This document shows, piece after piece, positions 42,250 to 43,338 of a stretch of DNA of 64,000 nucleotides. The DNA comes from an uncultured Gammaproteobacteria bacterium (GTDB lineage Bacteria > Pseudomonadota > Gammaproteobacteria > JACCXJ01). Position 1 is the first letter of the stretch. Each line of letters begins with the position of its first letter. The position numbers and the translations under genes were made by a program. The stretch spans positions 192,001-256,000 of the forward strand of contig CAVXTM010000011.1 in assembly GCA_963764725.1 (NCBI GenBank), read 5' to 3'. The notes below the pieces were generated by a model that saw only the letters and a list, made by a program, of their open reading frames with translations, was not told the origin of the DNA and did no database searches.

Positions 42250-43338
42250 TTAATGGGCGCCGATGGACTGGATCACCACCTTAACCGTCTTGATTAGGAT
42301 TTTTACGTCAAGCAAAAACGAGCAGCTTCGAATATATTGAAGATCGAGCCTCACCATGTCATCAAAGGACGTCTTACTTCGCCCCTCCACCTGCCAAAGA
42401 CCGGTGATACCGGGTTTTATCTCTAGAATTCGCCTGAGATGCCATGATTGGTATTGCTCAGCTTCGTAAGGAAGGGGTGGCCGCGGTCCAACCAGACTCA
42501 TGTCTCCCCTTAGCACATTGAAAAGCTGTGGAAGCTCATCAATGCTTTTTTTGCGAATGATTCTACCAATCCGGGTAACCCGTGGGTCAGATTGTATCTT
42601 GTACAATGGGTTTATCATGTCCCCTTGATTGATCTCTTCAAGCTTGCCGTTGATAAACTTTGTGATGTACTCTCGGTGGATTCGGTCATCCCCGCTGGAA
42701 TGCATGGATCGAAATTTGTAGAAGGTAAAAGGAACTCCCTTTCTACCCAAACGGATTTGCTTGAACAAAACGGGTCCTGGAGAAGTGGTTGTAATAAGCA
42801 ATGCCGTAATCAATATTACTGGCGACAATATTAGTATTGCAAGCAGAGAACCTACGATGTCAACGCCTCGTTTCAATAGATTCCGAAGCGAGATAGATTC
42901 TGTAGCATCCTCAAGAAAGAAAGGAGAAAGCGTTTCTGGATCCTGTTGTTCTGCTGAGAACCTATGAAAGATCTGATCAGGAAAAGTCGCGGTGACGATT
43001 GAGAAAGGAGGCTTTTCATGTCCGTTAAACAGCTTGCTAACACATTGTTCCGCCCCCTTCTCGGTGGTATCTGGAAAAATTACGCCTATGACATTGTCAT
43101 CGACGTATCCAATGATATCGGTTTCCCGTAGGTATTCCGGAAGCGGGGTTATAAATTCCTCAAAGTTATTCAGCTCATTACTCGTCTTGTTCTCAAAGTT
43201 GATAAGCGCAATAGTCAAAGGGGCCTTGGAGCGCTCTGCCCGGCGCCTCTCAATTCGCAAATGCTTCAGGAAGTAAGGCTTCGGAAGCAGCTTGGTCTGC
43301 AAGGAGCTTATCCTGTTATGTACGCTACGATGCGTCAT
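42250..43338 (-). CDS. Priming phosphoglycosyltransferase (Bac_transf) with N-terminal degenerate GGDEF-like domain
   Basis: C-terminal [48 protein letters not shown]-terminal residues 15-121 follow the GGDEF pattern with RETD (RxxD). Confidence 0.9.

Follow-up and report, generated by a model that had tools for sequence, protein, structure and literature searches.

In the window, by which we mean the whole stretch of 64,000 nucleotides analysed here (positions 192,001 to 256,000 of contig CAVXTM010000011.1 from an uncultured gammaproteobacterium), an open reading frame (ORF) of 362 codons at 42250..43338(-) encodes a protein of 362 amino acids that joins a degenerate GGDEF-like domain (N-domain) to a small monotopic phosphoglycosyl transferase (PGT). 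An earlier note on this DNA had described such a fusion and had proposed that the biofilm signal cyclic di-GMP (c-di-GMP) directly controls the enzyme. The ORF is present as described and its translation agrees with the residues quoted there; translation could also begin at codon 13 (TTG), and the database copy of the protein (P0002) comprises 350 amino acids. The N-domain is derived from a GGDEF domain and is probably a c-di-GMP receptor of the inhibitory-site (I-site) type that gates the priming PGT. That ligand is bound, that the domain dimerises in vivo, that activity is affected and in which direction is what we infer from the data below. The observation itself is well supported, while the mechanism is plausible and testable, but unproven.

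The single sequence did not settle the ancestry of the N-domain. In a Pfam scan, residues 15-99 matched positions 7-99 of the 161 positions of the GGDEF profile (PF00990) at E 0.21, and an equally weak match to HSDR_N was obtained at E 0.093. The scan was therefore rejected as evidence, and the question had to be addressed through relatives. A word-indexed search yielded at least 8000 candidates, all with E<=0.001, and the best 120 of them were listed. Precomputed annotations place PF00990 beside PF02397 (Bac_transf) in 17 of these 120, and several of the proteins with both domains, 482-526 amino acids long, carry two tandem copies of the N-domain. When the 120 aligned members (alignment A1) were rescanned with Pfam, Bac_transf was detected in all of them and GGDEF at E<=0.01 in 32, the best match reaching 1.5e-12. 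With the A1 profile, 26 distinct PDB sequences were detected at E<=10. The C-terminal half accounts for seven of them, all PGTs (WbaP, PglC); the other 19 match at profile positions of about 10-127, and 17 of these are named GGDEF or diguanylate cyclase. The remaining two are called 'ammonium transporters' and are matched at residues 473-575, where a GGDEF domain is presumably fused. From query residues 1-135 and 36 short database proteins, mostly fragments (alignment A2), a second profile was made that covers the N-domain only. It detected 21 distinct PDB sequences at E<=1, 20 of them from the same GGDEF set: 18 are named GGDEF, diguanylate cyclase, WspR or PleD, two are the GGDEF-bearing 'ammonium transporters', and one (RAD18, E 0.24) is a chance match. 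The best scores were obtained for GcbC (1.2e-8), 3ign (2.5e-8), WspR of P. syringae (3.8e-7) and 6khu (1.2e-6).

Structure prediction led to the same assignment. The AlphaFold2 model of the fusion protein, built on alignment A1, has a mean pLDDT of 78.8 and a pTM of 0.72, with low confidence limited to residues 1-15 and 132-149. The N-domain is modelled as alpha0 (20-37), beta1 (41-48), helices at 56-69, a hairpin of beta2 (75-80) and beta3 (83-89), alpha3 (93-104), beta4 (112-118) and a short helix (122-129). A disordered linker follows, and the PglC-like domain then opens with long helices (151-185), presumed to be the re-entrant membrane helix of the PGT. Foldseek returned 26 matches at E<=0.001 in all for the full model, and its N-terminal half was matched at probability 1.00 to WspR, PA0575, 6khu, 3ign, GcbC, FimX and PleD. 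The closest solved truncated form is 6khu, a 131-residue 'DGC protein' from Thermotoga maritima, with TMt 0.69 and a root-mean-square deviation of 2.9 across 113 columns. It can be aligned with residues 6-118, as far as the conserved terminal Y-P-(D/E), and has SDDTF at the GGDEF position, but it carries R-V-P-L-D, with one extra residue, at the place of RxxD, and the deposited chain is not a PGT fusion. Since nearly all PDB matches of the family profiles are GGDEF proteins and Foldseek finds GGDEF structures, the resemblance goes beyond chance. The cyclase-like fold and the GGDEF descent put forward in the earlier note were thus borne out.

To compare individual residues, a hidden Markov model was built from the N-domain columns of A1 and every copy in 270 proteins was aligned. 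The domain was matched in 269 of them, as a single copy in 237, as two copies in 30 and as three in two. Two sets were considered, 164 domain copies from representatives at 50% identity (diverse copies) and 139 copies from close relatives.

These alignments indicate that the catalytic features of GGDEF domains are lost. As the earlier note had stated, DDNVI (residues 80-84) sits where GcbC, 3ign and WspR have GGEEF. Positions 80-83 vary across the family; the most frequent residues in the diverse copies are D, G and N at position 80 (55, 35 and 16 copies) and D, E and H at position 81 (41, 28 and 15 copies). Exactly where these three proteins carry DxFKxxNDxxGH, the family has a deletion of eight residues. 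In addition, the N-domain ends after the strand following alpha3, so that about the last third of the GGDEF domain, which has some 160 positions in full, is absent. With the GGDEF loop, the DxFKxxNDxxGH segment and the C-terminal third all gone, the N-domain cannot be a cyclase and is, judged from its sequence, a truncated and catalytically dead GGDEF domain.

A different picture emerged for the I-site. R71 and D74 are the most conserved positions of the N-domain, each present in 161 of the 164 diverse copies; conservation of RxxD in homologues, which the earlier note had suggested checking, was therefore evident. The motif R71-E-T-D74 is aligned to RQSD of 3ign and to R242-S-S-D245 of WspR, and five residues separate it from position 80, the canonical spacing; its place at nucleotides 43117-43128 was also given correctly. 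Beyond what had been noticed before, a second I-site arginine is retained, as R36 in alpha0 is aligned to R198 of WspR (numbering according to the 3bre chain, with residue 181 at profile position 27). R36 is found in 152 of 158 diverse copies, together with E30 (153/157) and R33 (151/157) in the same helix. Further conserved positions are G77 (156/164), F23 (144/151) and the terminal Y119 (98/103) and P120 (100/101). Among close relatives, R71 was found in 137/137, D74 in 136/137 and R36 in 132/136 copies; tandem copies are included in these counts, and the extra copies of tandem proteins hence retain the motif. According to PMC2270323, c-di-GMP at the I-site of WspR is held by R242 plus R198 from a second GGDEF domain, and the R242A and R198A proteins purify nucleotide-free. 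The family has therefore shed the catalytic apparatus and selectively kept both halves of a documented c-di-GMP I-site.

The C-terminal half is a PglC-like small monotopic PGT. Bac_transf was matched at residues 156-356 with E 4.7e-66 and 222.2 bits (cut-off 27), and the top Foldseek ranks for the fusion model were PglC (E 1.7e-11, TMt 0.80, 36-37% identity) and WbaP (E 2.3e-9), both on the C-terminal half. The IDELPQ motif with D267 and E268 is invariant in 120/120 aligned relatives. A conserved Asp-Glu dyad of monotopic PGTs is named in PMC10312794, and D267-E268 presumably corresponds to it. Two curated models of large PGT types stayed below their cut-offs: TIGR03025 (EPS_sugtrans) scored 283.8 against 295.55, with only the C-terminal model positions 246-444 covered, and TIGR03013, the PGT of XrtA systems, 171.6 against 393.35. 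PglC of Campylobacter resembles the catalytic half of the fusion protein, but lacks both an N-terminal domain and an insert of 34-38 residues. This insert (residues 213-250 here, with H221 invariant) is 34-38 residues long in eight of nine fused ORFs that could be parsed, whereas among 55 unfused enzymes it reaches at least 32 residues in four and measures 26-28 in 50. It mostly co-occurs with the N-domain and may be a docking surface for it.

How the N-domain could act was approached by co-folding two copies (residues 14-135, alignment A2) with two c-di-GMP molecules that rode along unscored. The homodimer obtained an ipSAE of 0.59 compared with 0.00 for the best control; agreement between the runs was 93% of contacts or better, and partner pLDDT did not fall below 78. 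The ipSAE mark is reached by 20/30 proteins solved as one-chain pairs and by 1/23 solved single chains, counts that are only roughly applicable here. In both copies the interface comprises residues 28-29, 32-33, 36-37, 39, 71-73 and 89-90. The model thus predicts that the alpha0 face of one domain packs onto the RxxD face of its partner, an arrangement known from I-site-bridged dimers of WspR and PleD. By this likeness, an intercalated c-di-GMP dimer would bind R71 and D74 of one N-domain and R36 of a second one, supplied by another protomer or, in relatives with two or three copies, by the neighbouring copy. Such a cross-link, of the type seen between the GGDEF domains of WspR and PleD, would gate the transfer of sugar-1-phosphate to undecaprenyl phosphate, either by altering the oligomeric state or by setting the tethered catalytic domain free. 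By analogy with other c-di-GMP-controlled polysaccharides, activation at high c-di-GMP is the likeliest direction. The complete scheme, in which a c-di-GMP dimer cross-links dead GGDEF domains of two protomers or of tandem copies and directly switches on the first step of Wzx/Wzy- or exosortase-type synthesis, which consumes undecaprenyl phosphate, is put forward tentatively, as a possibility nearly as good as even. About 15 genes with GGDEF domains (16 PF00990 matches over the cut-off) and a c-di-GMP-I riboswitch are present in the genome, so that c-di-GMP is in use as a signal.

Several observations weigh against a c-di-GMP receptor. The PF00990 match of the query itself reached 11.8 bits, below the Pfam gathering score of 23.8. 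K102, which may be the counterpart of a third I-site arginine of PleD (R390), is basic (K or R) in just 92 of 142 diverse copies, and the arginine of RxxD is absent from some proteins, for example in the fused copy of a Nitrospira locus (L011; AEHD) and in copy 1 of the three-copy protein P0122 (KASD). The alpha0 pattern E-x2-R-x2-R and RxxD are also present in the active cyclases WspR and GcbC, and may have been inherited for structural reasons or for dimerisation, and with about the last third of the domain missing, the geometry of the I-site could differ. Because complexes of WspR and PleD are already solved, the co-fold result shows likeness and not binding, and it may reflect memory of these dimers. 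No diguanylate cyclase gene was found beside the fused PGT among 49 neighbouring ORFs of seven related loci. Finally, the locus in the window may be partly decayed, as wzx is split among several frames and four transposase ORFs are present.

Alternatively, the N-domain could be a ligand-free relic, a dimerisation or scaffold module in which the alpha0 and RxxD residues make protein-protein contacts, either between N-domains or with the PGT insert. The predicted homodimer faces touch directly (32-73, 36-73, 90-33) with the ligand unscored, the domain is truncated, and the insert accompanies it in the proportions given above. The conserved residues, however, are exactly those that hold c-di-GMP in WspR, and selection on a ligand site predicts what is seen here: in a domain without any other GGDEF signature, an arginine, an aspartate and a second arginine at the surface are conserved to about 96-98% in different phyla. 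A ligand-free module is therefore considered unlikely.

The pocket could also bind another nucleotide, such as (p)ppGpp, GTP, a different cyclic dinucleotide or, as feedback, UMP or a UDP-sugar, and so couple priming to another signal. Two PleD structures in the PDB, 9g85 and 9g86, are titled 'in complex with c-diGMP and ppGpp/pppGpp', and PMC10312794 describes the domain of unknown function (DUF) of WbaP as a UMP-sensing regulatory domain; nucleotide sensing by accessory domains of PGTs thus need not involve c-di-GMP. RxxD with the alpha0 arginine is, on the other hand, the documented I-site for c-di-GMP, and nothing in the analysis indicates a different ligand for the N-domain family, which makes this explanation improbable. 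The parts of the fusion gene are listed in Table 1.

Table 1. Parts of the GGDEF-PGT fusion gene and their positions in the window
Feature	Position	Strand	Basis
Whole gene: degenerate GGDEF-like N-domain fused to small monotopic PGT, 362 amino acids	42250..43338	(-)	
Truncated GGDEF-like domain, residues 15-130	42949..43296	(-)	AlphaFold2 model, profile and Foldseek matches
Helix alpha0, residues 20-37, with E30, R33 and R36	43228..43281	(-)	R36 aligned to WspR R198
RxxD I-site motif R71-E72-T73-D74, five residues upstream of GGDEF position	43117..43128	(-)	Alignments
D80-D81-N82-V83-I84 at GG(D/E)EF position, degenerate and variable in the family	43087..43101	(-)	Alignments
Linker from N-domain to PGT membrane helix, residues 131-150; pLDDT<50 at 132-149	42889..42948	(-)	Model
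Bac_transf/PglC-like PGT catalytic domain, residues 151-362	42253..42888	(-)	Pfam, fold match
D267-E268 in IDELPQ motif, presumed Asp-Glu catalytic dyad of monotopic PGTs	42535..42540	(-)	Invariance
Clade-specific insert of PGT domain, residues 213-250 (DDxIHREY...NQGD)	42589..42702	(-)	Alignment

The fusion is not confined to this genome. With residues 1-135 as query, phmmer detected 232 proteins at E<=0.001 among 1.84 billion representatives, 56 at E<=1e-10 and two at E<=1e-30. A crude PGT motif was present in 31 of the 149 new representatives listed. A set of 33 representatives was scanned with Pfam, chosen mostly for a missing PGT motif or long length; 18 contain Bac_transf, and most others are short fragments with no match. 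The scan also revealed P0240, a protein with GNVR and a full-length GGDEF domain, while P0137, with Sushi repeats and 14 stretches, was discarded as a spurious match. In P0201 (532 amino acids), two degenerate GGDEF-like copies, both with RxxD, are fused to a glycosyltransferase of the WecG/TagA/CpsF family instead of a PGT. Of 600 pattern matches in species-representative genomes, all but one encode a relative. The N-domain is on the PGT ORF in 12 of the 80 best matches; one belongs to a betaproteobacterial metagenome-assembled genome, eight to Acidobacteriota, one to Nitrospira, one to a member of the Planctomycetaceae, and one is unclassified. Loci of Kribbella and Micropruina (L013, L054 and L059, also L072), in which tblastn matches extended into the N-terminal half, were excluded, as no N-domain was recognised there by the hidden Markov model. 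Among 40 relatives of the genome of the window, strong fusion matches (E<1e-50) occur only in one of the same genus (G005) and one of the same family (G009), both unpublished genomes on which this count depends, and the distribution is accordingly patchy. No paralogue of the N-domain was detected in the genome itself, where the sole matches are weak ones to ordinary GGDEF proteins (E>=9.5e-7). At 42001-44000 the G+C content is 0.49, whereas the 2-kb bins on either side have 0.57 and 0.52; like the patchy presence among relatives, this fits a horizontally mobile gene.

Gene neighbourhoods were compared by scanning 49 ORFs in seven fused loci of other genomes. They include Poly_export proteins, Wzz/GNVR chain-length determinants, ATPases resembling bacterial tyrosine kinases (BY-kinases), DegT aminotransferases and deacetylases. 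A GFO oxidoreductase gene lies directly downstream of the fused PGT in three of the seven, a MOP flippase was found in L009 and an exosortase in L010. The fusion thus constitutes a widespread family in several phyla, with one to three tandem N-domain copies, usually in exopolysaccharide (EPS) loci of the Wza/Wzc or exosortase type. The same neighbourhoods bear on another possibility, namely docking of a partner protein on the N-domain, for example an active diguanylate cyclase for local signalling or a nearby polysaccharide co-polymerase/BY-kinase, with the PGT regulated by that contact rather than through the global c-di-GMP pool. In four of the seven loci (L001, L009, L010, L049), the fused PGT is preceded immediately or at a short distance by a BY-kinase-like ATPase gene, and control of PGTs by phosphorylation and by response regulators is documented. 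In this window, however, the BY-kinase gene (1862-2776) is about 40 kb away from the PGT, a cyclase gene is adjacent in 0/7 loci, and docking would leave the I-site-specific conservation unexplained. We regard it as the least probable of the alternatives.

The locus in the window is itself an EPS locus of the Wza/Wzc, exosortase type. Its left end (2-5139(-)) harbors markers of XrtA/PEP-CTERM EPS systems: Wza (Poly_export), the PEP-CTERM-associated outer-membrane protein TIGR03016 and an XrtA-associated tyrosine autokinase, as well as the XrtA-system chain-length determinant TIGR03007 (382 bits, cut-off 278.85). No exosortase gene was recognised in those ORFs of the window that were scanned. 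The fused PGT is preceded, on the same strand, by genes for two DegT aminotransferases, two hexapeptide acetyltransferases and a GFO oxidoreductase resembling UDP-GlcNAc-3-dehydrogenase, a combination that would fit a di-N-acetylated amino-sugar donor. Downstream follow rmlACDB, a flippase-like gene, an epimerase, an RfaH homologue, GT2 and GT4 glycosyltransferases, an AsnB-like amidotransferase, a FemAB-like protein and a deacetylase. None of the family searches of the locus identified Wzy; an ORF of 443 amino acids at 24447-25778 had no match. The only other Bac_transf gene of the genome (C7) is of the WcaJ type (TIGR03023, 533.6 bits, above the cut-off) and was rejected as the real primer of this locus, because it is located on another contig beside its own Wzc-like gene. 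The fused enzyme is consequently the only PGT found in the locus, and the best explanation is that it is the priming PGT of this exopolysaccharide, with the dead GGDEF domain as its cytoplasmic N-terminus.

The Wzx/MOP-flippase-like gene at 36607-38202(-) is broken up into three or more reading frames (37438-38202, 36713-37477 or 37164-37676, and 36607-37209), reflecting either decay to a frameshifted pseudogene or an assembly error. Four transposase ORFs, two of the Mutator family, one DDE_Tnp_1/Tn5-like and one DUF772/DDE, are situated between the export and the glycosyltransferase genes (6297-7550, 9092-9985, 11279-12247 and 15316-16065). The c-di-GMP-I riboswitch was found at 5973-6064(+) with 73.1 bits (gathering score 35). 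Behind it lie an ORF of 52 amino acids that begins like a signal peptide (6137-6295), then, in the opposite orientation, a transposase of the Mutator family (6297-7550), and finally a PKD/LamG ORF (7577-9115, +). This region looks like a riboswitch-controlled gene for a secreted protein that was split by an insertion sequence. In the earlier note the riboswitch was cited in support of c-di-GMP control; it does exist, but at a distance of 36 kb from the PGT and in front of that other, interrupted gene, so that its support is weak and it was not accepted as evidence from the same locus. A second PKD/LamG gene (12332-14458) is located after one of the transposase ORFs. Two paralogues of the RfaH-family antiterminator are encoded in the one polysaccharide region, at 34945-35505(-) and 60849-61358(-), with 150.2 and 141.2 bits, respectively (cut-off 144.5). 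Two giant ORFs, 48808-53337(-) with 1509 and 53619-60293(-) with 2224 amino acids, contain DUF4082, LamG, Ig-like and fn3 domains; a DMFA2_C domain was detected in the former and many WD40 repeats in the latter.

Among known systems, the fusion shares with WspR and PleD the RxxD motif five residues before the GGDEF position, an alpha0 arginine that would complete the site from a second domain, and the faces used in the predicted dimer. The N-domain is, in contrast to theirs, non-catalytic by its sequence, devoid of the C-terminal third and fused to a membrane enzyme, and it would sense c-di-GMP and not mediate product inhibition. PelD and PopA are degenerate GGDEF proteins that act as c-di-GMP receptors, and PelD switches on polysaccharide production; both resemble the N-domain in being dead GGDEF domains that retain RxxD. 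PelD, however, is a separate subunit with a GAF domain in a synthase-dependent pathway, whereas here the putative receptor is shorter and belongs to the same polypeptide as the initiating PGT of a Wzx/Wzy- or exosortase-type locus. PelD was not among the PDB sequence matches of the A1 and A2 profiles.

The earlier note knew of no such control point in Wzx/Wzy pathways. This holds for the PGT itself: a GGDEF-PGT fusion or direct c-di-GMP input on a PGT was not described in the full-text literature searched, judged mostly from abstracts, with the O'Toole 2021 sequence similarity network survey of monotopic PGTs, which may list GGDEF fusions, outside its coverage. The GGDEF-PGT architecture is already visible in precomputed Pfam annotations. 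The claim is too broad for the pathway and for PGT regulation in general. The glycosyltransferase HfsJ of the wzy-type holdfast pathway of Caulobacter is reported to be directly activated by c-di-GMP (PMC6372794, PMC9980756). HfsJ is similar in that an early cytoplasmic glycosyltransferase step is under direct c-di-GMP control, but it is not a priming PGT and, in these sources as consulted, no GGDEF-like domain is claimed for it; P0201, with its WecG/TagA-family glycosyltransferase, provides a further link. EpsZ is activated by the phosphorylated response regulator EpsW and CapM by phosphorylation, and with WbaP they have in common with the fusion a post-translational control on the first committed step, which consumes undecaprenyl phosphate. 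Their signals are phosphorylation, a partner protein or UMP, and the regulators act in trans or through another accessory domain. 'Bifunctional' monotopic PGTs with fused domains, including regulatory ones, have already been catalogued, and small monotopic PGTs are said to carry 'regulatory domains, including receiver domains'.

Post-translational control of polysaccharide production by c-di-GMP is well worked out for synthase-dependent systems. If the proposed mechanism is true, a receptor in cis on the priming PGT would bring the signal to the very step that commits scarce undecaprenyl phosphate, and the soluble N-domain of 135 residues offers an easy biochemical handle on it. Such a second-messenger gate on a PGT would extend across Acidobacteriota, Planctomycetota, Nitrospirota and Proteobacteria, and c-di-GMP-responsive EPS loci would become predictable from sequence alone in many uncultured lineages of soil and water.

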